Shown here: in pieces, positions 8,482 to 49,681 of the stretch
How the letters are laid out: every line of letters begins with the position of its first letter
How positions within the stretch are numbered: position 1 is the first letter of the stretch
Assembly: GCA_013791585.1 (NCBI GenBank)
Contig: VMTK01000018.1
Coordinates: 7,316-71,315, forward strand
From: Candidatus Falkowbacteria bacterium
GTDB lineage: Bacteria > Patescibacteriota > Patescibacteriia > Patescibacteriales > VMTK01
Direction: 5' to 3'
Length of the DNA stretch: 64,000 nucleotides
Notes under the pieces: model-generated
What the model was told of the DNA's origin: nothing
Seen by the model: the letters and a program-made list of their open reading frames with translations, nothing else
Databases searched by the model: none
Position numbers and translations under genes: made by a program

Positions 8482-8943
8482 TTACTTCTCTCTCACCTTG
8501 ATAGAAATCTGTTTTGACACTTTGGCTTTTGGCAGGACAATGGTTAAGACTCCGTTTTCCAGCGACGCTTCTATCTCCTGGGCTTTTATTTCAACCGGCA
8601 GGATTATTGACCGCGAGAAGCTGCCCCAATAGCATTCCCGGTATAAATAATCGTCAGCGTCAATATTTTCCTGCGTTTCTCTCTTGCCTCTTATGGTGAG
8701 CATGTCGTTGTTGATGGAGATGTCAATGTCTTCCGGCTTGACTCCGGCAATGGTTGAGGTGACTATCAGCTTGTCGGGAGTTTGGTAGACATCAATAGAC
8801 AGCTGGCCTTCTTCGTAATCATTTTCAAGCCATTCCTCGCCGGCGTTGCTTTCCGCTGAATCATCAATTTCTTCATCATTGCCTCCGCGGCCTGATAATT
8901 TTTTGTCGGAAAATCCCGCTAATTTTTTAAAAAAGTTGCCCAT
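8482..8943 (-). CDS. Hsp20/alpha-crystallin small heat-shock protein
   Basis: SIDVYQTPDKLIVTSTIAGVKPEDIDISINNDMLTIRGKRE ... ASLENGVLTIVLPK. Confidence 0.9.
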   Translation of the reverse strand: MGNFFKKLAGFSDKKLSGRGGNDEEIDDSAESNAGEEWLENDYEEGQLSIDVYQTPDKLIVTSTIAGVKPEDIDISINNDMLTIRGKRETQENIDADDYLYRECYWGSFSRSIILPVEIKAQEIEASLENGVLTIVLPKAKVSKQISIKVREK

Positions 8944-8993
8944 ATTGTTTTTAGTTTTTAAAATTAATTATGCTGTTATTATAAAATTTTTTA

Positions 8994-9027
8994 GAAAATT
9001 AAGCAAGGGATAGCGGTTAATAAAAAA
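8994..9027. repeat. 34-nt direct repeat, left copy (GAAAATTAAGCAAGGGATAGCGGTTAATAAAAAA)
   Basis: 33/34 identical to 18382-18415, same orientation. Confidence 0.8.
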
Positions 9028-9171
9028 TAGTTTTAGGAGCAGCCGCATTTAAAATAAAAAAATCGCTTGAAAATTATTCAGAATTAGGTAAAATGTAAGT
9101 AGTAATATTATGTTTAATGTAAAGGAATTTCAATATTACCATTCGTATGTCCCGCTGTTATGCCTTCGGCA

Positions 9172-9201
9172 GTCCCACTACAAATGGGACACATTCAAAT
9201 A
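9172..9201 (+). promoter_or_regulatory. hairpin-family copy 1: GTCCCA|CTACAAA|TGGGAC + ACAT TCAAATA
   Basis: 6-bp stem, 7-nt loop and tail shared with copies at 12.3 and 14.4 kb; lies in the 5' leader of the 779-aa gene. Confidence 0.6.
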
Positions 9202-9225
9202 GCGGGTTCGCGAAGCGAATAACTT

Positions 9226-11565
9226 ATGATAAAAGAGCAGAGTTTGCCAAATATAAACAATTTTGAAAAGCAGCCGGTGGAGGCTGAAGGGTTTGATATG
9301 GAAGAAAAGAATCGTGATTACGAATTACCGCTGGAAAAAGAAAAAGAAAGTTCAATGGAAATAATGAAGCAAATGGCAGAATATTACAATAAACTAAAGG
9401 AGCTAAAAGGCAAAAGCGGCACGGAAAAAATTAATAAAATAAAAAATTTTATTGGCGGCTCTAAAAATCAACAAGCAAAAATAAACCGTGTAAAAGCATT
9501 TTTGTCGCTTGAGCAAGATCCGGATATGGGAGATAGGATTATGCATTTAGGCGAGCGATTAAAAGAAAAACCAAAATTAGCGGATAAAGTATTTGCTGAA
9601 TACGCGGCAAATGTGGATAGCGCTGAAAAAAATGCCGATGAATTGGCGAAACTGTATAATGAAATATTTTTTGAAAAACAAATTGATCGTAATAAAGCTA
9701 AAATGGCTATGCTGAAAAATGCTGGAAATTTGTTGTATTGGGCGAATGAAGGATTATTCAGCTGTGAAGAGCAAGAAAAGGAAGATATGATTAATGATTT
9801 AATTTTACAGCTTAGGAGACAGGAAAAAGCGCAAAAAGCAATTTTAAATGATTTAAAAAGTTTGGCTGCAACATTAAACAAGAAGTATAAAGAGATTAAT
9901 GATTTATGGCGAAAAAAAGATTGGGATGAAGAGATAGAACTTCAAGCGCATTTTTTGGAGCAAGATGGATTTTCAAAAAAAGAGATTGAATCTCACATAG
10001 AGGCTATGGATGAACCTATAGAAAATTATATAGCTAGCATAGAAGAAAAAGATGAAATAGATAAACAAAAAAAATATGACAGTGAAAGAATTAAAAAAAT
10101 TATTAATAAATTAGAAAATTATTATAGAGAAAATTTATATCTTGATTCAATTTTAAAGTTAAGTGATTTTGCTAAAATTTGGCAAGTTGATGAAAGTCAA
10201 GCCAAAAAGATATTGGAAGATAAACGATTATATCAAGAAGAAAGATATAAGCCGTTTGTTGGCAAGTTTAAAATTTTATTAAAATTTCAACAAAGTTTTG
10301 AACAAAAGATAGATCAATTTATTTATGGTGATGGAATGCCGGAGTTGCCAGAAGGAGTAAAACAGGAAGCGGCTGATTTAATTTTTCAAAAATACCAGGA
10401 AATTATTGATCAAACTAAAATTACTAAGATTCAGCTTAAAGCTTTATTCAAAAATAAGAAAAAAGTTAGTGATGAGGAGATAGATCAAGCCACGGAAATT
10501 ATTATTAAAAAAGCTGACAACTTATTACATAATTTTGCACAGAGATTTAGCCAAGATGAAAAAATTGACGAGAAAGAAATAATAAATGAATTAGAAAACT
10601 ATAAAGCCAATTTAATCTTAACGGCCAGTGTTTGGAAAGCAGCTGATAAAGAAGGCATTAATTTTGAAGACTTGGAAGACGTTAGCTCTGAGCGGAAAAC
10701 AGCAGGTGAAATTACGGAGCATGGCAAGACCATGAAACTGGTTAATGAAATATACGATAGAGAAACAAGTAAAAAACAGCCTTTTATTCCCGGAGGCAAT
10801 ATAAGAAGCGCGATTTCACAATACGCGGCAGAAGCCAGTCCGGAGGAAAGGGAAAGAGCCGGCGAGATTTTAGAGATGATAAATATTTACAGCAAACAAT
10901 ACGCCCATAAACCGAAACTGCGGGAAAAATTAATACAAGGATTTATAGATAAATTAAATACGGCCGGAGACAAAACCGCGATTTATTCTTTTAAGAAAGG
11001 CGGCCATGTTTTAGCCTTTGACAGGTTTGACGATTTGGGAAAAGGCAAAAAATATTTTGGGTCATTCAACGTCCTGCCCGCGCTTACTGATTCGGCTATT
11101 GGCTCGGCTTTGTTGCGGGCAAGCTTGGACAAAGAAGCGGAGCAGTCAGCAGAAATAGAGGCGGACTGCGAGCCTGAAAAATTAATTAGCTCATATTATA
11201 TTGAAAAAGCCGGGTTTGTGGTAAAAAAAATAATCCCAGATTATGGAGACGCGGGGATTACAGCATTTAATATTTCCAGAAAAAAAGAAAACAGCAAGTA
11301 TTATTACAGGGATTACAAGGCGGAAGATTTAAAGAAAGAGCATGAAAATAATTTTTCTAACAATAAATTTAACAAAGACGATCAATATATAATATTAAAA
11401 TTTGAATCAAACGACGGCAAGCCGATAGAAAACGAACAGCAGATTAAAGAAATACTGGATCAAGCGGGCGATTTGATTAATAGCAATGGCTATGTGATGA
11501 CGAGATATATTTTCAGCAAAGACAGGCGGGCAGTTTACTGCGCGTTAGAAAGAGAAGGAAGCTGA
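9226..11565 (+). CDS. large hypothetical protein, coiled-coil N-terminal region, GNAT-like C-terminal region
   Basis: C-terminal SAIGSALLRASL and YYIEKAGFVV resemble GNAT motif A and the YEK.GF motif; rest unassigned. Confidence 0.55.
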   Translation: MIKEQSLPNINNFEKQPVEAEGFDMEEKNRDYELPLEKEKESSMEIMKQMAEYYNKLKELKGKSGTEKINKIKNFIGGSKNQQAKINRVKAFLSLEQDPDMGDRIMHLGERLKEKPKLADKVFAEYAANVDSAEKNADELAKLYNEIFFEKQIDRNKAKMAMLKNAGNLLYWANEGLFSCEEQEKEDMINDLILQLRRQEKAQKAILNDLKSLAATLNKKYKEINDLWRKKDWDEEIELQAHFLEQDGFSKKEIESHIEAMDEPIENYIASIEEKDEIDKQKKYDSERIKKIINKLENYYRENLYLDSILKLSDFAKIWQVDESQAKKILEDKRLYQEERYKPFVGKFKILLKFQQSFEQKIDQFIYGDGMPELPEGVKQEAADLIFQKYQEIIDQTKITKIQLKALFKNKKKVSDEEIDQATEIIIKKADNLLHNFAQRFSQDEKIDEKEIINELENYKANLILTASVWKAADKEGINFEDLEDVSSERKTAGEITEHGKTMKLVNEIYDRETSKKQPFIPGGNIRSAISQYAAEASPEERERAGEILEMINIYSKQYAHKPKLREKLIQGFIDKLNTAGDKTAIYSFKKGGHVLAFDRFDDLGKGKKYFGSFNVLPALTDSAIGSALLRASLDKEAEQSAEIEADCEPEKLISSYYIEKAGFVVKKIIPDYGDAGITAFNISRKKENSKYYYRDYKAEDLKKEHENNFSNNKFNKDDQYIILKFESNDGKPIENEQQIKEILDQAGDLINSNGYVMTRYIFSKDRRAVYCALEREGS

Positions 11566-12320
11566 TCGTATGCCTTTGAGCGATTCCATGTAAACTTAAA
11601 TAATGATTTATTGAATTGATAAATATTTTTATCATTTATAATCATTGATATAATGCCTTTCGTTGAAAGGGAAATATAGGCTACTTTTCCATCGTAAATT
11701 TCAACAATAGAGTTAAAAGGATATTTTAAATGGTCAATAAAACGAAACTCGCTAACTTTCGGGTGATAGTCTTTGAGATAATTTCTAGCGAACAACGTAT
11801 CAATTACTATAATTTTTTTCATAATATTCAGTTGCTCTCTTTTTTTCGCGTGTTCTCTGTTCAGCTTCTCCATATATTTAACAACCGCTTCAACATCCGC
11901 GAAAGTGCAAATTGTTTCTTTGGCGGTCAGCATATCGTCCAAAACTATTTTTAAGCCGTTTATTCCCTCAAAATACCTTACTCCCGGCTTGCCGGAAACC
12001 AGATTAAAATCCGAAACAATGCCAGATAGATTCGCTTCCAGGGTATTTTTCGCTTTTTTAAATTCGCTTTCTTTCTGCTCGGCAAAATCACGCAGTTTTT
12101 CAGGATGGTCCGGGCTGAAATAAGCGACTTTATCCTTGGTTTTCTGCGATGCCAGCCCCTTTTTAACTAATGCTGTTAAGGCATTATAAACAACTCCGCG
12201 CTTAAGCGGGGTTTTTTTAATGATTTTCCCGGCCGAAGATTCGCCGTTCTTTAATAGATATTCATAGACAACGGCTTCATTGGCCGACAGCCCTATTTGA
12301 GTAAAAATGTCTTTATACAT
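11535..12320 (-). CDS. TrmB-family winged-HTH regulator-like protein
   Basis: IGLSANEAVVYEYLLKNGESSAGKIIKKTPLKRGVVYNALTALVKKGL; 3' end overlaps the convergent 779-aa gene by 31 nt. Confidence 0.7.
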   Translation of the reverse strand: MYKDIFTQIGLSANEAVVYEYLLKNGESSAGKIIKKTPLKRGVVYNALTALVKKGLASQKTKDKVAYFSPDHPEKLRDFAEQKESEFKKAKNTLEANLSGIVSDFNLVSGKPGVRYFEGINGLKIVLDDMLTAKETICTFADVEAVVKYMEKLNREHAKKREQLNIMKKIIVIDTLFARNYLKDYHPKVSEFRFIDHLKYPFNSIVEIYDGKVAYISLSTKGIISMIINDKNIYQFNKSLFKFTWNRSKAYDQLPSLSNAQ

Positions 12321-12520
12321 GTTGTTTGCTTCGCAAAGCCCGGCTGCAAATCGGGCGCATGCGAATTAATGTTTTTTGCTTCGCAAAGCCCGGCTACGAA
12401 TCGGGCACATGCGAATTAATGTTTTTTGCTTCGCAAAGCCCGGCTACGAATCGGGCACATGCGAATTAATGTTTTTTGCTTCGCAAAGCCCGGCTACGAA
12501 TCGGGCACATGCGAATTAGC
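12321..12520. repeat. 4 x 50-nt head-to-tail tandem repeat, each unit a nested hairpin
   Basis: Units start at 12321, 12371, 12421, 12471. TTCGCA AA GCCCGG CTACGAA TCGGGC ACA TGCGAA; unit 1 has loop CTGCAAA. The array fills the whole intergenic gap, from the NTase stop codon to the TrmB-like start codon. Confidence 0.95.
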
Positions 12521-13130
12521 TTATGTTTTCTAGAATATTTTTTCTTAATTTTGCCATTTGCTGATTATTTATTTTTAGCTCTTCAGCCTTGCTTGCCTTG
12601 GTTAAAATTTCTTCAATTTCATTATATAAATTAGTTATCTTATATTCTTGGCTTAATTTTTTGAAAAATTTCCAGTCAATATCAACAGCATCCAACATGC
12701 TGATTATGTCAATTTTATCTTTTTCTCCTTTGATTGAATTTTTACGGTCTTGATAGGCAAATAATTTCAGCAGTAAAAGAACCTCAATTTTAGGAACAAT
12801 AAAACCCTCTATGTTTTGCGCGCAGCCGCTTATCTTTTCCAATGGAAAGCCGATTTTTGAATAATGCGGCAGATAAATATCAATATCAAATTCGCCTAAT
12901 TTTATTTCATATTTTTTCAGCCGCTCATTTTTAATGACTTGGTATTTTTCTTTCAGCTTTCCAAGCTCATTATAATCAATAACTATGTCAATATCTTTTG
13001 ACTTCATTTTTTTTGTCCAAAGATAAACAGCCCAGCCGCCGATTAAAATAAAATTAAATTTTTCATTTAATTCCCGCAGGGCTTGATAGCTTTTATCTGT
13101 TATATTGTCATGCCAAAATTGTTTGGTCAT
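12516..13130 (-). CDS. nucleotidyltransferase-fold protein (AbiEii/MenT-like toxin candidate)
   Basis: FILIGGWAVYLW..KSKDIDIVI..FDIDIY (GG..., DxD pattern); 4-nt overlap with the upstream HTH gene. Confidence 0.55.
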   Translation of the reverse strand: MTKQFWHDNITDKSYQALRELNEKFNFILIGGWAVYLWTKKMKSKDIDIVIDYNELGKLKEKYQVIKNERLKKYEIKLGEFDIDIYLPHYSKIGFPLEKISGCAQNIEGFIVPKIEVLLLLKLFAYQDRKNSIKGEKDKIDIISMLDAVDIDWKFFKKLSQEYKITNLYNEIEEILTKASKAEELKINNQQMAKLRKNILENIS

Positions 13131-13708
13131 ATTTTAATTCTTTCTTTTAATTTTTTTAAAAATTCCTGCGCGCACCAGCTATCATCATTCCATAAGTCAA
13201 CGAAAATCTGCCCCAATGTTCCGCATTGGCCGTAATCCTTTAAATATTCATCCTGCTTTAAAACATAAAGATTTTCAGGGCCTTTTTTCGCTGGAAATCT
13301 TTTTTTGATTTCATCAATGTTGGAGCCGTAAATATAAACTTTGCCATAGTCAGACGGCGTTTCCTTGAATTTATATTTATAAGCGCTAAAACTCGCCCAG
13401 ATAATATCCGAGGGCATATTAGCTTCAATTTTTTCAATCGGCTCGCCAACAAAGGTTTTATAGATTATATCTTTACTAAGCTTCCTGTGCGTTCCCCATA
13501 AATAAAGCATTTTTTCAATATTTATCAGCTTAAAGCCGCTGCCGGATACTTGAATCGCTTTAATTTCACGGGGGATTTTTAAGGCGTTAAAGACAGTTGA
13601 TAAGGAAAAATTGAATTTTTTAGCCAGTTCCTGTTGTTGAAAGTTAAAATTGTTTTTTTCTATTGATTGGTAAAGCATTTCGCGCCAAATCACTTCTTTT
13701 TTGAACAT
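13127..13708 (-). CDS. HTH protein, AbiEi-like antitoxin candidate
   Basis: QQELAKKFNFSLSTVFNALK HTH; coupled to the NTase gene. Confidence 0.5.
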   Translation of the reverse strand: MFKKEVIWREMLYQSIEKNNFNFQQQELAKKFNFSLSTVFNALKIPREIKAIQVSGSGFKLINIEKMLYLWGTHRKLSKDIIYKTFVGEPIEKIEANMPSDIIWASFSAYKYKFKETPSDYGKVYIYGSNIDEIKKRFPAKKGPENLYVLKQDEYLKDYGQCGTLGQIFVDLWNDDSWCAQEFLKKLKERIKI

Positions 13709-13750
13709 ATAATTAAGTTGTTTCTAAAATTGATAATAAAATATAGCTTT

Positions 13751-13770
13751 ATTTCTATTATAGTAGAAAT
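13751..13770. promoter_or_regulatory. palindrome ATTTCTA-N6-TAGAAAT upstream of the HTH/NTase operon (possible operator)
   Basis: Read directly, about 45 nt upstream of the start at 13708. Confidence 0.3.
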
Positions 13771-14007
13771 AGAATAAATGTCAAGTTTATTTTAAAGTGT
13801 TCTATAAAAAATGTGAATCAAGGTATTGGCTGTGCAATTAATTATATCACATCTAAAATAATTGTCAAGAAAAAATGATAAATATAATTATTTGATTGTT
13901 TTATATTGTCATTGAAATATGATAAAAATAGCAAAAATATAAATAATCTATTTAAGCTAAAATTAGCTTAATATTATCGCATTTGACAGAAATAAAGTCA
14001 TATACTC

Positions 14008-14036
14008 TTGACAAGATATAAAGGGTATGCTATACT
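14008..14036 (+). promoter_or_regulatory. near-consensus sigma70 promoter TTGACA-17-TATACT
   Basis: Exact -35, 17-nt spacer, 5/6 -10; fires into the ORF-free region 14.04-15.26 kb. Confidence 0.55.
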
Positions 14037-14160
14037 GGTATATCAAGCTAAAAAGATAGCTTTGATAAAAACAGCACTTTAAATTAAAATAAAATACTTT
14101 TCAGTCTTCTGCTTAGCGGGTTAGAGTGGTAATAGCTATAAATAATTATGGCTTTATCCA

Positions 14161-14323
14161 TTAGACTTGCCGCGTAATTAGTTTCTACTGCAATTTCCAT
14201 ATTTTGGCCAAATTTCCCAAAAATTTTTTCAGCTTAGCTCAGGCTAAACCTCAAAAATTGTTTGAAAAATTTGACTCAAAATCTGAAAATTTCGTTACAA
14301 AACTAATTACGCGGCAAGTCTAA
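14161..14323. mobile_element. MITE-like 163-bp element with 24-bp perfect terminal inverted repeats
   Basis: TTAGACTTGCCGCGTAATTAGTTT (14161-14184) and its exact reverse complement (14300-14323); arms continue imperfectly; flanked by TCCA at 14157-14160 and 14324-14327. Confidence 0.45.
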
Positions 14324-14410
14324 TCCAAAAGGCATAAAATTGAAAAATGCTAGCGAGTGGCATTTCTTTCAAGCCAAATGCTTGTCGGCTTGAAAGAAGT
14401 CCAGTCTCTG

Positions 14411-14497
14411 GGATTTGAAACGCGGCGCTACAAATGCCGCCCATCCGAATAAACGGATTTGAAACGCGGCGCTACAAATGCCGCTCGTGCGAATAGA
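14411..14497 (+). repeat. two 44-nt-spaced units GGATTTGAAAC GCGGCG|CTACAAA|TGCCGC + (CCAT CCGAATA / TCGT GCGAATA)
   Basis: Hairpin-family copies 6 and 7 (stems 14422-14440 and 14466-14484). Confidence 0.85.
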
Positions 14498-14552
14498 ACA
14501 GGGATTAAATAGCACATTAAATTAAAATATTATTGTTCTTTATAAATAAAAC

Positions 14553-14727
14553 GCAATCAAGGAAACTAATGAAGAAGATTATTTATAACTATGATTTATG
14601 GCCAAGGCCTAAGTTAAGGTTATAAAGATCAATAAAATAAGTGCATAAAACAGCAAGGGATATCAAATAATAACTAAGCTCTTTAATAATTCATCTATTG
14701 CTCTTCTTCATCATTTTCTTTGATTGC
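14553..14727. repeat. 26-nt imperfect inverted repeats enclosing about 120 nt
   Basis: GCAATCAAGGAAACTAATGAAGAAGA vs TCTTCTTCATCATTTTCTTTGATTGC, 23/26 complementary. Confidence 0.7.
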
Positions 14728-15140
14728 AAAATCAGCTAAAAGCGATTGCTGTAAATTTTAGAATAAAAGCAGATTAAGCCATGCTTGTAATCTGCTTCCT
14801 AAGATATAATAGCCGCTTTAGTTCGTCCCGCTCCAATATAAATTTGGGCGGGAGATGGAATTAATTTTTGAATTATTATTTTAAATAATTATTCAAAAAA
14901 AGCGTAATCTAAATTGCACGAACCAATTTTGATAACGCGCCGCTTGAGTAAATTGTGATTCAGTTGTCTTTAAAAGATGATGAAATCCATTTTAAAGCGA
15001 TTCTGTCAACTGATGTGTTTGCCTCTCGAAAATCCCGAGGGAAGGACATTGGCTGGACGCAAAGTCTTGAACCCGCTTTGTGTCTAGAAATGTCTTAGCT
15101 AATAATTTAGAGCAATCCCGTTATTTATGACGGAGTAAGC

Positions 15141-15261
15141 GTTCTTTAAAACAAAATTTAAACTGAGGCAAAATGGAAATTAAATTTTTTAGTTTTTATT
15201 TTGTCTCAGTTTAGAGGCATAAACATTGAGCCCAGCCCGAGGGGAAATTCGGGCAAGGAGG
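15141..15261 (+). promoter_or_regulatory. 121-nt structured leader, copy 1 (ends in the SD AAGGAGG)
   Basis: 118/121 identical to 17024-17144; 15-bp stem 15160-15174/15198-15212; CCCGA..TCGGG hairpin 15236-15253 next to the SD. Confidence 0.8.
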
Positions 15262-15265
15262 AAAA

Positions 15266-16219
15266 ATGAATTTTTTTCAAATTGATCCGCGACCTGTCGG
15301 CCGTGGAGCGAATGAAAAGTTTTTTTCCGAGAACAGCAATGTCCTCGGAATTGAAGTAACTATTCCTGAGTGGGCATCTCGATGTTCATTTGGGAATATA
15401 GATCATCACGGCTCACAAGACACGGCGGAAACTCCGTCGGCTTGTGAACAAGCCATAAAGTATGGGACGCGATTTTTCGGTCGCCCCTGTTGCGGCGGTG
15501 GCTGGGATACTTATTCGTGTCCCAAATGTGACGGGGCTGATTGTCCTCCGGTTAAACCGGAGGCAATAGTCACTGTTCGCCCTGATGCGGATTCTGTGAC
15601 GGCAATGGCAGTTGTTTTTTCTTGCCTTTTAGGGGGTGGGCGAGAGATTGATCGCGACCTTGTAAAAATGGTCGGAACATTCGACCGACTTGGACATCAT
15701 GCCGAGCAACGCGATGACCGAGTTGTCGCCATTGCCCGAGTCTCCGCAGATTTCAAGCGTTCGCTCACAGAGCGAGTCGCTTGGGTGCAGGGATTGCTCG
15801 CTGGAAACAGTGAGCAGATGGCTGAGGTGGCTGAACTTGTTGCGGAACGCGATAAAGAATTTGCTGAGGCCAAAGTGGCGAGTGAGATTAATCTTGTCGC
15901 TAACGGTCGGATTGCTACGGTTGTTTCGTCGCATCGTTTTGCGACAAACTTGGGTTATGAGTATGCGACAGTTGTCGTAGCTCAAAACCCTGAAATGCCC
16001 GTGAATTTTCGTGACCCGTTCGCTGGTACATACAATAAATTTACGGTGTGTCGGTATAATTCGCACACACCGTGTAATTTACCGGCGGCACTTGCTGAGC
16101 TCCAAGTATTGGAGCCCGGCTGGGGCGGTCGAGGGGATATCTTCGGATCTCCTCAAGGAGTAAACTCTAAACTAACCCTCAACCAAGTGGTTGAGGTGGT
16201 TCAGAAACACCTCAAATAA
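15266..16219 (+). CDS. hypothetical protein with DHH/DHHA1-like motifs in non-canonical order and a Cys cluster
   Basis: GNIDHHG (aa 43-49), VRPDADS (aa 104-110), GWGGRGDIFGSPQG near the C-terminus; RPCCGGGWDTYSCPKCDGADC; strong SD; higher G+C than its surroundings. Confidence 0.7.
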   Translation: MNFFQIDPRPVGRGANEKFFSENSNVLGIEVTIPEWASRCSFGNIDHHGSQDTAETPSACEQAIKYGTRFFGRPCCGGGWDTYSCPKCDGADCPPVKPEAIVTVRPDADSVTAMAVVFSCLLGGGREIDRDLVKMVGTFDRLGHHAEQRDDRVVAIARVSADFKRSLTERVAWVQGLLAGNSEQMAEVAELVAERDKEFAEAKVASEINLVANGRIATVVSSHRFATNLGYEYATVVVAQNPEMPVNFRDPFAGTYNKFTVCRYNSHTPCNLPAALAELQVLEPGWGGRGDIFGSPQGVNSKLTLNQVVEVVQKHLK

Positions 16220-17150: not shown

Positions 17151-17510
17151 ATGAAGAAGAAGTATTTAGAAATTTTTTTTGATAAATGTACTTTTTCTGC
17201 AGAGGATATTGTTTCTTTAGCAGAAGAGGTAAGAAAGAATTTTACTGAGATAAGAATCGTCCCATCCTCAGTATATTCTTATCAAGGAGGAGAGCACGGT
17301 AGCAATCCTCCTAAAACTCGACCAGATGATTGGTCGGGAGTTATTCCTCGTATAAGTGACGGGGATACCCGTGACGGAGATTATCTTCTGTGCCTCGGCA
17401 CTGAGGATAGATACGGATATGTAGACGAGCGAGGGCTTGTCTACAAAAAGGCTTCCTCAATTGAGGAAGCAAAAAAATTTTTAAAGGGGGTGAATAATGC
17501 AAAAACATAA
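17151..17510 (+). CDS. hypothetical protein (119 aa)
   Basis: Strong SD; no recognisable motif; 14-nt overlap with the next ORF. Confidence 0.6.
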   Translation: MKKKYLEIFFDKCTFSAEDIVSLAEEVRKNFTEIRIVPSSVYSYQGGEHGSNPPKTRPDDWSGVIPRISDGDTRDGDYLLCLGTEDRYGYVDERGLVYKKASSIEEAKKFLKGVNNAKT

Positions 17511-18255
17511 AATTTACCCCTCAGGTCTAGAGCAGTATGAACATGCTCTAGGCCTGTACCAGCCTGTGTCGTATTGGCTGGCGCCAGAAGAGCAGACCTG
17601 CCGAGTGGTCTGCAATTTGCGAAGCCGGACTCATGAAGTATGGCTGAGTGAGCCGGCCTATAGGAGTCCGGAGCTTTTGCTCCCAGACATTGTCCATAAA
17701 CTTTGCCATTGCGCTCTGGCGGAACGAGTGGACACGGCTTTTTCCACGATTTGGTTCACTGAAAAATGGAATCAAATCAGCCGGAAAGAGCCGGGACGGT
17801 TCAGTCAGTCCGCCCGGATGCTCTACTTGGCATGGTGCCATGTGGACATTTGGGTCAATGATCTCCGGCACAAACATTGGCCGGAGTTAATCGCTCAGGA
17901 GCACTCCACCTTTGCTCAAGGAGTTGTTATTTTACTCCAAAGGCATGAGTGGGGCATGCTCTCCAGATCTGAGACGCTTCTCGGCTTGGCTCAGCACCAG
18001 GCCGAGCGGGAGCGGCACGGCCTATCTAAATCAGCTGACCTTTTTGCCGTTTTGTCAGCCCATGGCATAGAGGTTGAAAAAAAGATTAAAGGGCTGGCAG
18101 AATTTTTTAAATTTTTGCCGCGCTTGCGTTTTAAGCCGCGCAAGGATTTGAAAATTTTGGAAAGTTCAGTTGTAGAAGTTGCGCGCCGGCTGGAATTTCC
18201 AATTAGTCCCAAACTCGTGTTTAAAAACGGACTATGGGTTTGGGATTTGGGTTAA
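17497..18255 (+). CDS. hypothetical protein (252 aa) with an HExxH-like HKLCH motif
   Basis: IVHKLCHCALAE (Lys where a metalloprotease Glu would sit); SD AGGGGG upstream; translationally coupled. Confidence 0.6.
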   Translation: MQKHKIYPSGLEQYEHALGLYQPVSYWLAPEEQTCRVVCNLRSRTHEVWLSEPAYRSPELLLPDIVHKLCHCALAERVDTAFSTIWFTEKWNQISRKEPGRFSQSARMLYLAWCHVDIWVNDLRHKHWPELIAQEHSTFAQGVVILLQRHEWGMLSRSETLLGLAQHQAERERHGLSKSADLFAVLSAHGIEVEKKIKGLAEFFKFLPRLRFKPRKDLKILESSVVEVARRLEFPISPKLVFKNGLWVWDLG

Positions 18256-18415: not shown

Positions 18416-18502
18416 GGGCTAAACCGCTCGCAGACGATTTAGCCCCTTTACCGTTTCAAATATCTGATCTGAAATCTGAAATCCGACATCAGAAATCCGA
18501 AA

Positions 18503-18613
18503 TGGTGGGCGACACAAGATTTGAACTTGCGACCTCCACGATGTCAACGTGGCGCTCTAATTTACTCCGGTACGCCCCGCTGGGCTACCGGAGCGAGCTG
18601 AGCTGCTTGTTGT
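18503..18613 (-). pseudogene. tRNA-Val(GAC)-like gene with a 37-nt hairpin inserted in the D-loop and no matching 5' acceptor strand
   Basis: 3' half is canonical (CCACG TTGACAT CGTGG AGGTC GCAAG TTCAAAT CTTGT GTCGCCC A CCA). D arm is GCTC AG[CTCGCTCCGGTAGCCCAGCGGGGCGTACCGGAGTAAA]TTA GAGC. The upstream 7 nt do not pair with GTCGCCC. Confidence 0.4.
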
Positions 18614-18692: not shown

Positions 18693-18774
18693 GTATCGGA
18701 TGTCAGATTTCGGATATCTGAAATCAGATTGTTAATTTATCCGAAATCCGAGATCTGAAATCCGATATCCGAAA

Positions 18775-18922
18775 TGGTGGGCATAGATGGATTTGAAGCT
18801 CCTCGGCGCTATCCTCGGTGCCGAAACTGGGAAACGGGGCGACATCCACGTTATAAGCGTGGCGCTCTAATTTACTCCGGTACGCCCCGCTGGGCTACCG
18901 GAGCGAGCTGAGCTAGCCGCCC
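18775..18922 (-). pseudogene. aberrant tRNA-like gene (UAU anticodon loop) with the same D-loop insertion, no foldable T arm, plus a stray tRNA 3' fragment
   Basis: GGGCGGC TA GCTC AG[37-nt insert]TTA GAGC G CCACG CTTATAA CGTGG AT GTCGCCC. GTCGCCC pairs with the 5' acceptor directly after the anticodon arm. The gene then ends ..TTCAAATCCATCTATGCCCACCA. Confidence 0.35.
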
Positions 18923-19188: not shown

Positions 19189-20397
19189 TTATATCGGCAG
19201 CTTGTTTAATTTTTCTTCTATGGAGCTGATGATTTGTTTTTCCGCTTCTTGAATCGGCGCGTCTAAGGAAGCGAATGCCAGATTTCTATCGCCTTGAGGG
19301 TTGTATTCTTTTATTATGTTTAATGAGTTTATATTTTTTATAGAATGGACTAGTACGTTGGTTTTAAGTTTTGGCGTTTCTCGGCCTTCTTGTTTTATTA
19401 TTTTTTCATAGATTATGATAATAATTTTCGCCTGCGGTATGTTAATAATCAGCTCGTCAATCACATCAGGCAGATCTTTTTCGCTGGAACATGTTTTTTT
19501 AAAATCCGCGGACGACAAAGCGGACCAGACCAATTTATTGTCCAAAGAGCTGGACAGCCGCGCCAAAACTCTGCCCCATAATTTCAGCACGCTTAACGGC
19601 CTGGAGCGGTAAAGATGATTAACGATTTCCTCGCGGCGCGCGCCCATGGAAATTAACTGCGAAGCGGCCAGCAAACAGGCAGGAGTTATATTTGAAGTTT
19701 TAAAGCTTTTGGTTTCGTAAATCATGCCGGCCAGCAGGCAGGTGGCGATATCCTCGTCCATTAAATCCCTGGAGCAGCTGTTGAAAAGAGAAAACAGGAT
19801 TTCTCCTGACGCGACCGCGGTAAGATCCGTATAATTGATTTGCCCGAAATCTTCATTGTTGGAATTGCGGTCAATATTAATGATAGGCATTTTGTAGAAA
19901 AATTCCGTGTCGTTGTCGTAGATTTTTCCCAGCGATTCCAGATCAGGCGAGCCGATAACAATAATCAAGTCATATTTAAATCCGCTTGAATGCGATGTTA
20001 TGTCTTCTTCGGTAAAAAATCCGTCCCGCGGAGAAACTATGAAATTCAGAGAATTCTCTTCCATTTTGTATTTTATCTGGCTTACTTTAGTGTCGGTTAT
20101 ATCCAGGGAAATAATGAATTTGCGCAGATTTTCCAAGGAATTTTTTATCTCGCCGAAGCCGGGAAGAAACGAGAATGTCCGTCCGTCATTGAATTTTTCA
20201 GCAACCAGGTCGGCATTTTTGCCCAGCTTTTTCAAAAAAAGATGCATAGCCAAAGCAGAAGCGACAGCATCGCCGTCCCATGTTTTCTTGAATGTTATTA
20301 AAATATTTTCAGCTTTTTTGATTTGTTCAAAAATCTGCTGTTCCTGGGTTAGCATAGAAAATAATGCGAATCTGCGAATTATATCCAAATACTCCAA
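19189..20397 (-). CDS. DHH/DHHA1-family phosphoesterase (NrnA-like) with a degenerate DHH motif
   Basis: KKTWDGDAVASALAM (motif I/II); IDRN in place of IDHH. The start may be the MLTQEQQ Met at 20355. Confidence 0.65.
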   Translation of the reverse strand: MEYLDIIRRFALFSMLTQEQQIFEQIKKAENILITFKKTWDGDAVASALAMHLFLKKLGKNADLVAEKFNDGRTFSFLPGFGEIKNSLENLRKFIISLDITDTKVSQIKYKMEENSLNFIVSPRDGFFTEEDITSHSSGFKYDLIIVIGSPDLESLGKIYDNDTEFFYKMPIINIDRNSNNEDFGQINYTDLTAVASGEILFSLFNSCSRDLMDEDIATCLLAGMIYETKSFKTSNITPACLLAASQLISMGARREEIVNHLYRSRPLSVLKLWGRVLARLSSSLDNKLVWSALSSADFKKTCSSEKDLPDVIDELIINIPQAKIIIIIYEKIIKQEGRETPKLKTNVLVHSIKNINSLNIIKEYNPQGDRNLAFASLDAPIQEAEKQIISSIEEKLNKLPI

Positions 20398-20618
20398 ATG
20401 CGAATTATCCGAATAACTTTAATTCGATTTACAGTTATTCGGAGCATTAGGATTATAATAGAATTAGTATTTCAATATATCCTATATTTTTATTAGTGTC
20501 AAGCATAAATGGCTTTGACATAGCTGGTTTTTACATTTTTAGCGCTGTTTTTTGCTAATTTTTAAAAAATCTTGCAAGAAAGTAAAAAGTATGATATTAT
20601 ACAAATAGATTAACATAA

Positions 20619-21926: not shown

Positions 21927-24803
21927 ATGATCAAAGAACTGCCAAAGGCGTATGAGCCGTCCAAATATGAAGACGGGATTTATAAAAAATGGGAAAAGTC
22001 CGGTTTTTTTAATCCTGATAATTTAGATTTGCCCAAAAACGCGCCAAGCTATACTATTATTTTGCCGCCGCCAAACATTACTGACAAACTGCATTTAGGG
22101 CATTCTTCCATGCTTGCCATAGAAGATTTGCTGATCCGCTATCATAGGATGAAAGGATTTAGAACACTTTGGCTGCCGGGCACGGATCACGCCGCAATTG
22201 CCACGCAGAATGTTGTTGAAAAAAAGCTATTAAAAGAAGAGGGGAAAACAAGGCAAGATTTGGGCAGGGAAAAATTCTTAGAAAAAGTCTTGGAATTCGT
22301 AAAAATTACCCAGTCTGTTATTTTGCGTCAAACCAGAAAAATGGGAGCTTCTCTGGATTGGTCGCGTGAAGCATTTACTTTGGATAAGCCCAGAGAAGAG
22401 GCAGTCAAGAAAATGTTTATTGATATGTATGAGGCAGGAGTGATTTACCGCGGAGAGAGGATTGTTAATTGGTGTCCGCGCTGCCATTCAACATTGGCTG
22501 ATGATGAAGTGGAATACAAAGACCAACAAGCGAAATTGTACACTTTTAAATATAGCAAGGACTTTCCTTTTACTATTGCCACAACTCGGCCGGAAACAAA
22601 GCTTGGCGATACGGCGGTTGCGGTGAATCCAAAAGACAAAAGGTACAAAAAATATATTGGCAAGGTTTATGAAGTGGATTTTGTCGGGATAAAATTAAAA
22701 CTGAAAATTATCGCTGATCGGCATGTTGAAATGGATTTTGGCACAGGCGCGCTGGGCGTGACGCCGGCGCATTCTATGGCTGATTGGCAGATGGCGGAAG
22801 CAAACGGTTTGGAAATTATAAAAGTAATCGGCGAGGACGGGAAAATTAATAATAACTTCAAAAAATATTCAGGCAAGACAGTTGAGGAAGCTCGGGAGAT
22901 GATTGTTAAAGAGTTAAGAAAAAATAATCTTTTGGAGAAAGAGGAAGAGATAGAAAATAATTTGTCTATTTGCTACAGGTGCAATACTCCCATAGAGCCG
23001 TTGCCGTCTAAGCAGTGGTTTGTAAGTGTTGATAAAAAATTAAAGCGGCTTGGAGGCGAAACACAAAAACACAAAAACACAAAAACACAAAAACACAAAT
23101 TAGATATTGAAGGCAAAACGCTTAAAGAAGCCGCCATAGAAGCTGTTAAATCCGGAAAGATTAAGTTTATTCCGGACAGGTTTGAAAAAAGATATATTGA
23201 TTGGATGGAAAATTTGCATGATTGGTGCATTTCAAGGCAGATTTGGTTTGGGCATAGGATTCCGGTATGGCATAGAACACGAAAACACGAAAACACGAAA
23301 ACACAAAAACACGAAAACACAAAAACACGAAAACACAAAAACACGAAAACACAAAAACACGAAATAGAGGAAATTTATGTCGGGATTGAACCGCCGAAAG
23401 GTGAAGGATGGGTTCAAGATCCGGATTCTTTAGATACTTGGTTTTCTTCTGGGATGTGGACTTTTTCTACATTGGGCTGGCCTGATAATTTTAAAAATGG
23501 GAAAAAGAAAGGGGATCTATCAAGGTTTCATCCTACTCAGGTTTTGGAAACCGGCTATGATATTCTTACGCTTTGGGTTTCTCGCATGATAATGATGTCT
23601 TTGTTCGCTTTGCGGGAAATACCTTTTGAAAATGTTTATCTGCACGGCATGGTTTTGGACGAGCATGGCAAGAAAATGAGCAAGTCAAAAGGCAATGGCA
23701 TTGATCCTGTTGATATGATTGATAAATTCGGCGCGGACGCGGCGCGCCTGTCTTTGCTTATAGGCAATACTCCGGGAAATGATTTGCGGTTAAGCGAAGA
23801 GAAAATCGCCGGGTTTAGGAATTTGGTTAATAAGATTTGGAATGTTTCGAGGTATGTAATTTCAGATTTCAGATTTCAGACCCCGCCCAGCTCCGCTGAC
23901 CGGGGCTGGGTTTCAGATTTCAGATTTAATCAAAAAAATTTAACAGTATCCGACAAATGGATTTTAGGCAAGATGGAAAATCTAATTAAGGAAACAGGCG
24001 ATGATCTGGATAATTACAGATTTTCGCAGGCAGGCGAAAGATTGCGGGAATTTACTTGGAATGATTTCGCGGATTGGTATTTGGAAGTCAGCAAGTTTGA
24101 AAAAAATAAAGAAAAAGGAAAAATACTATCGGTAATTTTAAATGATTTATTGAAATTATGGCATCCTTTTATTCCGTTTGTGACGGAAAAAATTTGGGAA
24201 GAGATGGGGAATGATAAATTTTTAATGATTGAAAAGTGGCCGGTAACCCCCCACCCCCAACCCCTCCCCCACTCCTGTTGTCGCGGGAGAGGGGAGATAG
24301 ATTTTGAATTGATAAAAGATGTTATCACAGCCATACGCAACGCGCGGGCGGAAAACAAGATTGAGCCGGCGCGGAAAATCAAGGCGGTAATTTACGGAGG
24401 CAAATCAGCGGATTTAATCAAGTCGCAGGAGTATTTGATTAAAAACATGCGGACAGGGATTAAAGAATTAGAAATTAAGGAAAAAGCAGATAAAATAAAG
24501 AATCGCCGCAGTCCTCTGCGAGAGGCTGCGGCGGGGCAGAGAATGTGGCATTGTCTTGTTCCTAAAGATGCCATTCATATTGCCGTTGCCGGCATTGAAA
24601 TTTATCTGATCGGCGCGGTTGATGAGGAAAAAGAAAAAATCAGAATTAAAAAAGAACGCGAGAATTTGGAAAAATTAATTATTATGGCAGAAAAAAAATT
24701 ATCCAATAAAGAGTTTGTGGAAAAAGCGCCGGAAAAAATCGTGAAACAGGAAAAAGAGAAATTGAAATTGCGAAAAGAGGAATTGAAAAAGCTAACCAAG
24801 TAA
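21927..24803 (+). CDS. valS: valyl-tRNA synthetase with multiple repeat-derived in-frame inserts
   Basis: PPPNITDKLHLGHS (HIGH), KMSKSKGN (KMSKS), C-terminal coiled coil; inserts at 23060-23099, 23277-23364, 23859-23928, 24245-24296, 24504-24533. Confidence 0.95.
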   Translation: MIKELPKAYEPSKYEDGIYKKWEKSGFFNPDNLDLPKNAPSYTIILPPPNITDKLHLGHSSMLAIEDLLIRYHRMKGFRTLWLPGTDHAAIATQNVVEKKLLKEEGKTRQDLGREKFLEKVLEFVKITQSVILRQTRKMGASLDWSREAFTLDKPREEAVKKMFIDMYEAGVIYRGERIVNWCPRCHSTLADDEVEYKDQQAKLYTFKYSKDFPFTIATTRPETKLGDTAVAVNPKDKRYKKYIGKVYEVDFVGIKLKLKIIADRHVEMDFGTGALGVTPAHSMADWQMAEANGLEIIKVIGEDGKINNNFKKYSGKTVEEAREMIVKELRKNNLLEKEEEIENNLSICYRCNTPIEPLPSKQWFVSVDKKLKRLGGETQKHKNTKTQKHKLDIEGKTLKEAAIEAVKSGKIKFIPDRFEKRYIDWMENLHDWCISRQIWFGHRIPVWHRTRKHENTKTQKHENTKTRKHKNTKTQKHEIEEIYVGIEPPKGEGWVQDPDSLDTWFSSGMWTFSTLGWPDNFKNGKKKGDLSRFHPTQVLETGYDILTLWVSRMIMMSLFALREIPFENVYLHGMVLDEHGKKMSKSKGNGIDPVDMIDKFGADAARLSLLIGNTPGNDLRLSEEKIAGFRNLVNKIWNVSRYVISDFRFQTPPSSADRGWVSDFRFNQKNLTVSDKWILGKMENLIKETGDDLDNYRFSQAGERLREFTWNDFADWYLEVSKFEKNKEKGKILSVILNDLLKLWHPFIPFVTEKIWEEMGNDKFLMIEKWPVTPHPQPLPHSCCRGRGEIDFELIKDVITAIRNARAENKIEPARKIKAVIYGGKSADLIKSQEYLIKNMRTGIKELEIKEKADKIKNRRSPLREAAAGQRMWHCLVPKDAIHIAVAGIEIYLIGAVDEEKEKIRIKKERENLEKLIIMAEKKLSNKEFVEKAPEKIVKQEKEKLKLRKEELKKLTK

Positions 24804-32561: not shown

Positions 32562-35500
32562 ATGAGCGGTTTAACGGAAAAATTAAATAAAGAACAATCG
32601 CAGGCCGTTACTCATAGAGAAGGGCCGCTTTTAATAGTGGCGGGCGCCGGGACAGGAAAAACCACTGTCATAACTCAGCGCATCGCTTATATCATAGAGC
32701 GGGGCTGGGCAAAATCAGATGAGATTTTGGCTTTAACTTTTACGGAAAAAGCAGCCGGCGAGATGGAGGAAAGAGTTGATCGGCTTCTGCCGATGGGTTA
32801 TCTGGATTTGTGGATTTCAACTTTTCACAGCTTTGGCGAACGGATTTTAAAAGAGCATGGGCTGGAGATCGGCTTGCCGGCTGATTTTAAATTGCTTAAT
32901 GAATTTGAGCAGTGGTCGCTGGTTAGAAAAAATTTGGATAAATTCAACTTGGATTATTACCGGCCAATGGGCAACCCGGCCAAGTTTATCCATGCTTTAA
33001 TCAAGCATTTTTCCCGCGCCAAAGATGAAGATATTTCGCCGGCGGATTACCTCCAATACGCGGAAGGGTTGAGGGAGAATTTGGACGGGATGTTGAGCGG
33101 AGCAATTACAAAAAACACAAAAACACAAAAACACAAAAACACAAAAACAAATATAGACGGAGAGAATAGTAAAGAAATTGCGGAGCAGGAAATTTTAAGG
33201 ATTAATGAGGTTGCGAACGCATATCATGTTTATCAGCAGTTATTATTGGACAACAGCGCTTTGGATTTTGGGGATTTGATAAATTATTCTTTGAAATTAT
33301 TCAGGGAGCGGCCGGCAGTGCTGGAAAAATACAGGAAGCAATTTAAATATATTTTGCTTGACGAATTTCAGGACACGAATTGGGCGCAGTATGAATTGAT
33401 AAAAATACTGGCTCAGCCAAGGAATAATTTGGCGGTTGTTGGAGACGATGATCAGAGCATTTATAAATTCCGCGGGGCGTCAATATCAAATATTCTGCAG
33501 TTTAAAAAAGATTTTCCAAAGTCCAAAGAGATTTTTTTGGTTAATAATTACCGCAACAAGCAGAATGTGCTGGATTTGTCTTATGAATTTATTAAATTAA
33601 ATAATCCAAATAGATTGGAATATCAGTTGAACACGAAAACACGAAAACACAAAAACACGGAAAACACGAAAACACTCGGCCTGCGGCCTCAAAACACAAA
33701 AACACTCAGCTTCGCCTCAAAACACGAAAACACGAAAACACGAAAACACGAAAACACTGAAACACATGAGTTAAATAAAAAGTTGTTGGCGCAGGGAAAG
33801 GGCGAGGGCGTGATTGAGGTGATTCAGGGAAGTGATTTGCAGGATGAGGTTGGCCGAGTGGTGGAAAAAATTGCCGATTTAAAAATTCAGAGCAAGAACT
33901 CCAGCTGGAATGATTTTGCCATATTGGTTCGGGCGAATGACAGCGCCAAGGATTTTTGCAACGCGCTGGAAATTGCCGGCTTGCCTTACCAATTTTTATC
34001 TTCCCGCGGGCTTTATGCCAAGCCGGTGATTATGGATTTGACGGCTTACTTGAAATTGCTTGACGACTATCATGAAAGCGCGGCTGTGTACAGAATTTTA
34101 AATTTGCCTGTTTTAGATTTTTCTTATCAGGAATTGGTTAATTTTAATTATATCGCCAGAAAAAAAGCTTGGTCGCTTTATACTGTTTTGCGCGATTCGC
34201 GCGGCAGATTAGGCAGCGCAATTCAGCAAAAGATTGATAGAATTTTATCTTTGATAGGCAAGCATACCGCTTTGGCAAGAGAGAAAAGCGTTAGTGAAAT
34301 TATTATAGCTTTTTTAAACGATAGCGGCTATTTAAAATATTTGACCTCACCCCCCGCCCCCTCTCCTTCGCATGTCCCTGGCTTGAACAGGGAAGAGGGG
34401 GAATATGAGCGGGAAAGCAGAGAGAACATGAATTTGCTTAACCAATTTATGAAAAGAATAAAAAAGTTTGAATCAGCAAGCGACGATAAAAGCGTTAAAG
34501 CGTTTTTGGCTGAACTGAATATGGAGATTGATTCCGGTGAGCAGGGCTCTTTGTCTCCGGATATTGAATCCGGTCCGGAAGCGATTAAGATTATGACAAT
34601 ACACGGATCTAAAGGCCTTGAATTCAAATATGTGTTTATCGCCAATATGGTTGACAAGCGGTTCCCGACAATAGAGCGTCAAGAGCAGATTTTGATTCCG
34701 GACGCTTTGATCAAGGAAATTCTGCCGGAAGGGGATATTCACCTTGAAGAAGAGCGCCGGCTTTTTTACGTGGCCATGACGCGGGCTAAAAATGACCTTT
34801 ATTTTTCCTGGGCGCCTGATTATGGAGGGGTTCGGAAAAAGAAACCTTCAAGGTTTTTGGCGGAATGCGGGTTGATTCACGAAAACACGAAAACACTAAA
34901 ACACTCGGCTTCGCCTCAAAACACGAAAACACTCGGCTTCGCCTCAAAACACGAAAACACAAAAACACGAAAACACGAAAACACGAAAACAGCAATATCA
35001 GATATTGGCGAGAGCGCAAAGCGCAAAGTACAAATTACTAAAACCGAAACGGAGATGCAAATTCCAAATTATTTTTCCTATACTCAGCTGGCGGCGTTTT
35101 CAAATTGTCCGTACCAATACCGCTTTGCGCATATTTTGCGGGTTCCGATGACAGGCAAGCCGGTTTTTTCATTCGGCAAAACCATGCACTCTGTTTTGCA
35201 GAAGACATTTGAGCTGGTTAATGAAAAGAAGGGATTGGGGCAGGGGGATTTGTTTTCCCTCACCCCCCAGCCCCCTCTCCCGGCTGGGAGAGGGGGAGGC
35301 GATTCCAGCTCCGCGCCTCGTCGCGCAGCCGCCTCTGCTAAACAGTATATGGGGAGTATTGAAAATAGTCCCCCCTCCTGTTTAGGAGGGGCAGGGGGAG
35401 GTATAAATATTAGCTTGGAAGAAATTTTGAAATTATACGAACAAAGCTGGATTGATGACTGGTATGAATCTGACAAGCAAAAGCAGGAATACAAAAAGAA

Positions 35501-36644: not shown

Positions 36645-36942
36645 CGCATAACGCGTAACGCGTAAAACTTTATTGTCATTCCTCCGTACATTGTCATCCC
36701 GTAAAAATTTTGCGTGTGAGCAAAATTTTATACGGGATCCAGGGTTAAAATCAACGAATTATATTTTAGAATACGCAAGTTAAAAGCTATAAATACGATT
36801 AACAAAGCATTAAGCTTAAGCGTGTCTAATCCTGTATTCCGCATCATTTAATAATAAAAAAAATAATGAGTGTGCGGGATGACAAAAAAATCATATAAAT
36901 CATATAAATCCCTGCTAAATAAAAGGGCAGAGATATAAGATA

Positions 36943-37986: not shown

Positions 37987-38047
37987 TCGCATAACTCATA
38001 TCGCATATCGCATAACGCATAACGCATAACGCATAACATAAATATAT

Positions 38048-49553: not shown

Positions 49554-49681
49554 AACGCGTAACTTATAAATAATTAAAATATTATTTAGTTAGCGAGTTA
49601 ACGGGTTAACGAGTTATTGTTTAAAATTTGATTAACTCGTTAACTCTTTAACCCGTTAATTAAAAAACTAAATAATTTTCG

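Follow-up and report, generated by a model that had tools for sequence, protein, structure and literature searches.

Rickettsia palindromic elements (RPEs) are a documented case of palindromic repeats that lie in frame in the genes of reduced genomes (PMC10969869). Here we describe a ~50-nt repeat unit composed of two hairpins, copies of which occur in a 64,000-nt stretch of a Candidatus Falkowbacteria genome (assembly GCA_013791585.1, contig VMTK01000018.1, positions 7,316 to 71,315, forward strand). This whole stretch is referred to as the window, and coordinates are counted from its first letter. Like RPEs, the unit is a short hairpin repeat that occurs in tens of copies in the small genomes of host-dependent bacteria, both between genes and in frame in essential genes, where it adds a short conserved peptide; a transposase is associated with neither (PMC10969869). 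RPEs are ~100-150 bp in length and are described from Rickettsia, whereas the ~50-nt unit has two hairpins with invariant unpaired words, forms direct arrays and nested copies, and occurs in phages and in several classes of the Candidate Phyla Radiation (CPR, Patescibacteria). The two were compared by description, and homology is unlikely on grounds of size and architecture.

Three other groups of small repeats invite comparison. Repetitive extragenic palindromes (REP/REPIN), which are thought to act as single-stranded DNA (ssDNA) hairpins, are GC-rich, mostly extragenic imperfect palindromes with compensated stems that occur many times per genome and in clusters, without target-site duplication, as does the unit. 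Their conserved tetranucleotide GTAG is the reverse complement of the unit's CTAC. However, CTAC is located in the loop of the unit's second hairpin and not at the hairpin foot, the unit also occurs in open reading frames (ORFs), its arrays are direct rather than inverted pairs, and no RAYT/Y1-like cluster was found among its neighbors in 8-kb loci. PATEs, which derive from IS200/IS605, resemble the unit in having two subterminal hairpins and in lacking both target-site duplication and strict terminal inverted repeats, and an intermediate of ssDNA would be consistent with both. Unlike PATEs, the unit lacks a conserved 4-5 nt 5' target word and, in the 8-kb loci, a nearby TnpA/TnpB gene, and its two hairpins differ from each other. 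Transposable elements of the miniature inverted-repeat type (MITEs, including Correia, ERIC, BOX and RUP) are also non-autonomous, intergenic, co-transcribed with neighboring genes and sometimes found in ORFs, but the unit lacks target-site duplication, is much smaller, and shows conservation dominated by structure.

CPR bacteria are considered to have streamlined genomes with little mobile DNA, and we found no description of a CPR repeat of this kind in the literature. We consider it probable (roughly 0.7) that the unit represents a large, apparently undescribed family of small non-autonomous mobile repeats in Patescibacteria and some of their phages. If a genome of ~1 Mb carries tens of copies of a structured 50-nt repeat, the view of CPR genomes as streamlined would have to change, and the repeat would be a second, independent case of the rare phenomenon known from RPEs. 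The family would also provide a handle on horizontal transfer among CPR lineages. Its interest lies in the host range, the presence in phages and the insertion into essential genes. For annotation the units are a nuisance, as they cause ORFs to be extended spuriously and marker proteins to show odd insertions.

The unit and its copies in the window

An earlier note on this DNA reported seven hairpins with six-base-pair stems, a CTRCRAA loop and a conserved 3' tail, all on one strand. Direct reading of the sequence and a scan of both strands bear out the positions, stems, loops, tails and + strand orientation. Exactly seven N6-CTRCRAA-N6' hairpins with 6/6 pairs are present (starts at 9172, 12338, 12388, 12438, 12488, 14422 and 14466; span 9172-14484), and none is on the - strand. 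Dinucleotide-preserving shuffles of the window yield 0.14 such hairpins on average and never more than 2. The loop octamer by itself occurs at the level expected by chance (13 observed vs. 12.4 expected), and thus the signal resides in the stems. The note also reported compensated stem changes. Pairing is indeed complete in all copies, but these are not seven independent events, as four are units of one tandem array and two are units of another, so that the number of independent stems is three.

Rather than standing alone, the hairpin forms the second arm (hairpin 2, hp2) of the ~50-nt unit, in which the order is GTTAT, hairpin 1 (hp1; a 3-6 bp stem, mostly with a TTC loop), 1-2 nt, hp2 and the tail ACAT-NCGAAT. 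The upstream hp1 and the conserved GTTAT came to light in viral contigs, which were scanned with a pattern comprising the loop plus the tail and yielded five true matches with new, fully paired stems. A viral scan with a two-gap pattern returned chance matches and added no true copy among the matches listed. A covariance model built from 67 units (R1) and run without filters on the 64 kb recovers the known copies and one inverted partial unit at 9162-9225 (-), and no other at E<0.1. The copies are as follows.

9155..9202, + strand: complete unit containing the first of the seven hairpins (copy 1); R1 51.8 bits, E=5.7e-13
Parts of this unit, + strand, by sequence reading: GTTAT 9157-9161; hp1 GCC-TTC-GGC 9162-9170; hp2 GTCCCA-CTACAAA-TGGGAC 9172-9190; tail ACAT-TCAAAT 9191-9200
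9141..9225 (9141-9156 plus 9201-9225), - strand: outer inverted unit, split by the inner unit; R1 match 9162-9225 (-), 23 bits
Parts of the outer unit, - strand: reverse-complement tail ATTCGTATGT 9141-9150; hp2 arms CCCGCT 9151-9156 and AGCGGG 9201-9206; hp1 TTCGC-GAA-GCGAA 9207-9219; reverse complement of GTTA 9220-9223
12319..12518, + strand: array of four complete 50-nt units (copies 2-5); TRF period 50, 4.0 copies, 97% matches; R1 63.4-70.7 bits
14411..14495, + strand: two tandem 44-nt units with hp2 only (copies 6-7); TRF period 44, 1.9 copies; R1 32.9 and 24.1 bits

The unit at 9155-9202 occupies the hp2-loop position of the outer inverted unit, which is an eighth, split copy in the window. 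The resulting 85-90-nt composite (9141-9225) ends 2 nt ahead of the ATG of ORF 9226-11565. Folded as DNA, it forms a multi-branch structure (-17.8 kcal/mol, z=-4.4). Adjoining it at 9120-9140 is the reverse complement of a subfamily extension, (GG)TAATATTGAAATTCCTTTA. The window composite (90 nt) is 94% identical to L261:7263-7352, which is upstream of murI, and 93% identical to L225:3889-3971, and the flanking genes in these loci are only 64-71% identical to those of the window (L-numbers denote loci compared with the window; genome loci are 8-kb pieces). The L225 copy carries a compensated stem change. Composites of this nested type were found again in L307, L383 and L384.

The array at 12319-12518 fills the entire gap between the stop codon of an AbiEii-like nucleotidyltransferase gene (12516-13130, -) and the start codon of a TrmB-like gene (11535-12320, -), and is antisense to both. 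Tandem arrays also occur in L157, L191, L231 and L232. The units at 14411-14495 consist of GGATTTGAAAC, GCGGCG-CTACAAA-TGCCGC and then CCAT-CCGAAT or TCGT-GCGAAT, and lack hp1. The hp2-only architecture (GATTTGAAAC, hp2 and CCAT-GCGAAT) is also present at L259:4412, and an hp2-only unit without that 5' flank occurs in frame in alaS of L220. In one subfamily the loop is longer by one nucleotide, and a subset of units have imperfect inverted ends, GTTATTSG...CSGAATAAC. A trace of the unit ends without the hairpins, AAGTTA-N6-ATGCGAATAA, is located at 49544-49565 (-; 14.7 bits).

Structure and distribution of the family

The 134 distinct units have standard pairs in 94.2% of cells, compared with 48-58% (29% in one control) when the partners are slid by 1-3 columns. 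Double changes occur at 10 of the 11 pairs and in 252 cells, and the covariation score is 0.454 vs. ~0.03 in the slid controls and 0.144 in shuffles. Helix pairs have clearly the highest mutual information, with weaker signals only between neighboring hp1 columns; there is no sign of a pseudoknot or of tertiary pairing. Given the pairing and covariation of both helices, we conclude that both hairpins are selected as single-strand structures. These values substantiate the proposal that the hairpin is a selected RNA or ssDNA structure rather than a double-stranded DNA operator. Pattern scans, together with the covariance-model search suggested in the note (here with R1), reveal further copies and covariation in relatives (more than 130 units in Patescibacteria and phages). 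Reading the strand from G-U vs. A-C at the hp2 closing pair was tried and withdrawn, as the T there is fixed by the scan pattern.

A 19-letter pattern, for which ~26 chance matches were estimated, identified at least 117 loci in the species-representative genome set. Nearly all are from Patescibacteria metagenome-assembled genomes (MAGs), including Falkowbacteria, Moran(ii)bacteria and Parcubacteria among the matches listed. They include some MAGs labelled 'uncultured Gammaproteobacteria', which encode genes like those of the window. Copies are spread over many contigs of each MAG, and at least 17 loci were found in Falkowbacteria CSMAG_518. R1 identifies 136 units in 100 of the pattern loci and 29 additional units in 22 other loci, with 1-2 in each phage contig. 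The nearest relative of a unit is in its own MAG in 53 of 119 cases vs. 8.8 expected, indicating genome-specific subfamilies. Identical cores with unrelated flanks occur within and between MAGs, and are 12-fold enriched within MAGs.

At gathering thresholds, Rfam 15 reports just two tRNAs and no unit match across the whole window. At E up to 10, the region 8900-15300 has scattered miRNA/snoRNA noise, none of it on units. A riboswitch or ribozyme (guanidine-II with its ACGR loops, preQ1, pistol, twister) was rejected for want of both an Rfam match and a consistent gene polarity.

Gain, loss and genomic setting

Filled and empty alleles were sought by joining both flanks of each unit, searching all loci for uninterrupted matches and aligning the best cases. 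Around two unit sites, identity among the phage contigs L009, L020 and L030 is 87-94%. At the first, L009 carries a unit and both L020 and L030 are empty; at the second, a unit is present in L030, 8 nt upstream of a head-tail-connector-like gene, and L009 and L020 are empty. A unit abuts infA in L207, and this site is empty in L349 (flanks 83% identical). The inserted block extends from GTTAT to about GCGAAT and stands in place of a few A/T bases. These comparisons show that the unit is gained and lost as a discrete block. A role as a substitute for the Shine-Dalgarno sequence was discarded because the empty infA allele also lacks one.

Units are also present in frame in rplC (L187, L203), leuS (L245), alaS (L220) and a homologue of window ORF 1405-2760 (L213, L260). 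Such genes have an uninterrupted ORF and intact Pfam domains, and their orthologues are without the insert; mostly one reading frame is used. The rplC insert in L187 and L203 is ISFRESRATNAAHAN, and four other L3 genes are without it. The homologue of ORF 1405-2760 in L262 is empty at the unit site. At the same site, the window ORF has a (AAACACAA)n array (2128-2164), located between GTGATT... and ...GCCGAATTA, and this looks like a decayed unit. A peptide-coding array (MFFASQSPATNRAHAN, with TAATG overlap) was considered and dropped, as most units are not ATG-initiated. The family shows both orientations, tandem arrays, nesting, tolerance in frame in essential genes, and compensated stems.

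Both flanking genes lie opposite to the unit in 35 cases and share its strand in 25; the flanking genes are convergent in 7 further cases and divergent in 7. With orientation to the neighboring genes so mixed, there is no transcriptional polarity. Clustering of 798 neighboring ORFs identified, among others, S10-operon ribosomal proteins, EF-Tu, IF-1, LeuRS, TrpRS, Hsp20 and murI. Phage copies are located beside phage structural genes, including positions 8-12 nt upstream of terS-like and head-tail-connector-like genes.

The loop and its likeness to an anticodon loop

To sample units independently of the loop, we made a metagenome scan anchored on the commonest hp1 alone (GTTATTCGCTTCGCGAA), which yielded 57 units with a tail. 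The hp2 loops of these units fall into the following classes.

CTACRAA loop: 34 of 57 units
Other 7-nt loops (CCACGAA, TCACGAA, TTGCGAA, CTATGAA): 4 of 57 units
Loop of 3-5 nt: 6 of 57 units
Extra hairpin between CTAC and CGAAT: 8 of 57 units
Whole inverted unit in the loop, as in the window: 3 of 57 units
No class fitted: 2 of 57 units

The CTACRAA loop word is a trait of a subfamily. The R-T 'pair' needed for a 7-nt loop is kept in the window copies, but of 17 units in this sample 7 have a mismatch there. As this closing pair is often mismatched, hp2 across the family is a stem of 5 bp enclosing a loop of 9 nt. Loop (TACRAAT) and unpaired tail (TGCGAAT) are instances of one heptamer, TRCRAAT. 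A resemblance of UACRAAU to a T-loop was set aside because its register clashes with the covarying pairs.

The earlier note pointed out that the loop obeys the rules of a tRNA anticodon loop (7 nt, U at position 2, AA at positions 6-7). This holds for the seven copies in the window but fails across the family, where ~40% of the 57 units lack the CTACRAA loop. The likeness is to the anticodon stem-loop of tRNA Arg-ACG, in that the window copies have a 7-nt CUACGAA or CUACAAA loop on a 5-6 bp stem. We found no tRNA-Arg(ACG) genes for direct loop comparison in the compared loci. The unit has neither the remainder of a tRNA nor an association with tRNA enzymes, and we judge the match between CUACGAA and what we take to be the tRNA-Arg(ACG) loop to be a coincidence of a 7-letter word.

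Probable mobility and alternative explanations

The preferred explanation is that of a non-autonomous mobile repeat. By analogy, the unit may spread as do REP, RPE or IS200/IS605-type elements, via a folded single-stranded intermediate that is most likely DNA. A trans-acting enzyme would read both hairpins and the unpaired GTTAT, the CTACRAA loop (in the main subfamily) and ACAT-NCGAAT. Insertion would occur in A/T-rich spacers, often directly at start codons, without target-site duplication. The recourse to analogy reflects the lack of a target-site duplication and of a conserved target word. The copies in the window would be passengers in the 9-14.5 kb part of a variable island, outside any tRNA-related system. 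A recognition site of a mobile ssDNA intermediate was among the roles suggested for the hairpin, and this comes close to the explanation favored here, with the intermediate itself presumed. The invariant single-stranded words of the unit point to a candidate enzyme that is worth finding.

Several observations weigh against mobility. The 798 neighboring ORFs, from 8-kb genome pieces, include no transposase, no RAYT and no other protein that recurs beside the copies. Target-site duplication is lacking: flank matches of 2, 3 and 4 nt occur in 13, 7 and 2 of 133 units, which is about chance, and the three filled/empty comparisons show no consistent duplication. There is no conserved target word, as the 4-mers before GTTAT are merely A/T-rich (ATAA, TTAT, TAAT, TAAC and others). 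In 31 of 152 copies (~20%), an opposite-strand start codon is located at a distance of 0-4 nt from GTTAT, which might point to a part in gene expression. MAGs of different CPR classes share identical cores of 46-48 nt, which is unusual for selfish repeats and could instead indicate a host function under strong constraint. The invariance of CTACRAAT, CAT, CGAAT and TTC in alignment A2 is partly ascertainment, because the genome scan pattern fixed these words. The scan left GTTAT and the first A of ACAT free to vary, and most of these positions are still >90% conserved (83% for the A of GTTAT).

The explanations that tie the hairpin to its neighbors in the window all appear very unlikely. In one, hp2 mimics the anticodon stem-loop of tRNA (Arg-ACG or Cys-GCA) and serves as a decoy or substrate of a nearby tRNA-targeting enzyme, such as a nucleotidyltransferase toxin, an anticodon nuclease or the deaminase TadA. 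Beyond the loop rules and the presumed identity with the tRNA-Arg(ACG) loop, it can draw on the adjoining AbiEii-like gene (a weak match, E=5.7e-6) and on the Thr codon (ACG or ACA) that the loop forms in in-frame copies, which a TadA-type A-to-I edit could recode. We give it little credence, as the clustered neighboring ORFs include no recurrent nuclease or deaminase and reveal no link of the family to tRNA-acting genes. Half of the loops have ACA, which to our knowledge is no bacterial anticodon. The loop-independent sample contains other loop words, loops of only 3-5 nt, loops with a hairpin insert and closing pairs with a mismatch, one subfamily has the extra loop nucleotide, and the loop word recurs unpaired in the tail. 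In addition, neither hp1 nor the flanks correspond to any part of a tRNA, and both ARAGORN and Rfam are silent on the units. The suggestion of an anticodon mimic or decoy is therefore not upheld. Nor is the proposed connection to the adjacent nucleotidyltransferase, helix-turn-helix (HTH) and TrmB-like genes or their cassettes: the unit is found beside unrelated genes in dozens of genomes, and we thus see no functional tie to the neighbors in the window. It is still harder to credit the arrays as precursors of small processed RNAs (a ToxI-like array, a TIGR/CRISPR-like guide array or other repeat-RNA) tied to the AbiE-like pair. Four head-to-tail 50-nt units do adjoin a toxin-like nucleotidyltransferase gene, other genomes have arrays too, and both phages and parasitic bacteria are known to carry TIGR arrays (PMC12045711). 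Those arrays alternate 8-12 nt repeats with variable ~9-nt spacers and are accompanied by a Nop-domain Tas protein (PMC12045711). The units within an array are instead identical, the variable parts pair only with each other, and Pfam and PADLOC report neither a Nop/Tas nor a ToxN-like protein; a TIGR-Tas array is ruled out by the identical units without variable unpaired spacers and by the lack of a Nop domain. A type III toxin-antitoxin array was rejected because such an array should precede an endoribonuclease toxin gene on the same strand, and the array here is antisense to both neighbors. The gene that starts at the array edge encodes a TrmB-type HTH protein, and most members of the family are solitary beside unrelated genes. 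Least credible are double-stranded operators for the adjacent TrmB-like or HTH regulators. The TrmB-like gene does have the array immediately upstream, and ORF 9226 has the 9141-9225 composite upstream, but the half-sites (stems) vary with compensation around a conserved center, which is the opposite of a palindromic operator, and the family occurs genome-wide beside unrelated genes and within ORFs.

A function for the host is a more serious, though still rather unlikely, alternative to the mobile repeat. The unit would be a cis-acting RNA or ssDNA module in which a conserved CPR protein binds the unpaired TRCRAAT words presented by both hairpins, and which sets the mRNA stability, processing or translation of nearby genes; it would have spread secondarily or have been recruited from a mobile element. 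This is consistent with the extreme conservation of GTTAT and ACAT-NCGAAT across CPR classes, the abutment of start codons, the phage copies just upstream of terS-like and head-tail-connector-like genes, and the highly expressed housekeeping genes among the neighbors. It is also consistent with the free xCRAAT words that fill rplC upstream leaders, and with solitary ATGCGAAT boxes that are conserved upstream of orthologues in L239 and in the window (20364, 20398). However, orientation to transcription is about even, unlike that of a one-strand RNA signal; copies occur within ORFs, and the same sites have empty alleles in close relatives. In addition, infA is without a Shine-Dalgarno sequence whether or not the unit is present, a regulatory role does not readily account for tandem and nested copies, and the window shows no enrichment of the free box (8 observed vs. 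5.7 expected). A host function would be compatible with mobility. More speculative, and doubtful as a whole, is a combined scenario in which a 50-nt hairpin transposon is shuttled by phages across CPR classes and a conserved ssDNA/RNA enzyme reads GTTAT and TRCRAAT. In-frame copies would remodel L3, LeuRS and AlaRS, and CUACGAA loops in mRNA would perhaps be TadA-type A-to-I sites that change Thr to Ala.

Sequence surroundings and other features of the window

A variable segment, which extends to tRNA-Val and is missing from the syntenic L261, holds the copies in its first 5.5 kb. ORFs 15266-16219 and 17497-18255 have ~50% GC in a window of 38% GC, and neither has a Pfam or PADLOC match. These ORFs, the adjacent tRNA-Val and tRNA-Ile genes and the absence of the segment from L261 suggest an integrated foreign island. 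Also encoded, at 12516-13708 (-), are a 193-aa ORF and a 204-aa ORF with DUF6036 and weak AbiEii nucleotidyltransferase similarity, which overlap by 4 nt and are probably an AbiE-like toxin-antitoxin or abortive-infection pair.

Solitary ATGCGAAT boxes at 20364-20371 and 20398-20405 (+) are located around the start of ORF 19189-20397. One box is kept at the orthologous place in L239, with a full unit after it. Free ATCCGAAT copies occur around the units in L191. The rplC leaders of L187, L203 and L238 have a terminator-like hairpin, then xCRAAT runs and then their reverse complements, so that long imperfect hairpins result.

Microsatellites with 7-8 nt periods abound in the intergenic DNA and include AAACACAA, AACACGAA (11 copies), CGCATAA (7 copies), CGCGTAA and CGGATGT (6 copies). 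CGGATGT is the reverse complement of ACATCCG, the start of the unit tail. Flanking tRNA-Val are (ATCCGAA)n arrays (18467-18503 and 18739-18775), the heptamer of which is a piece of the tail variant ACATCCGAAT. Microsatellite arrays of the window are located as follows.

2128-2164
23059-23099
23276-23364
33630-33765
35597-35664
36631-36665
37988-38037
50507-50548
others elsewhere in the window

A 1.5-kb gene-free stretch just 5' of the units at 14411-14495 has a near-consensus promoter (TTGACA at 14008-14013, 17 nt, TATACT at 14031-14036), 3' of which is a 25-bp perfect inverted repeat (14160-14184/14300-14324) with weak miRNA-like Rfam noise only. This element (14008-14324) could be a non-coding RNA or a MITE. 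Finally, the region ~18504-18610 (-) looks like a third tRNA gene, with TGG, an acceptor/T-arm-like start and an internal hairpin insert, although it is not called by ARAGORN or Rfam. CPR tRNA genes reportedly can contain introns.

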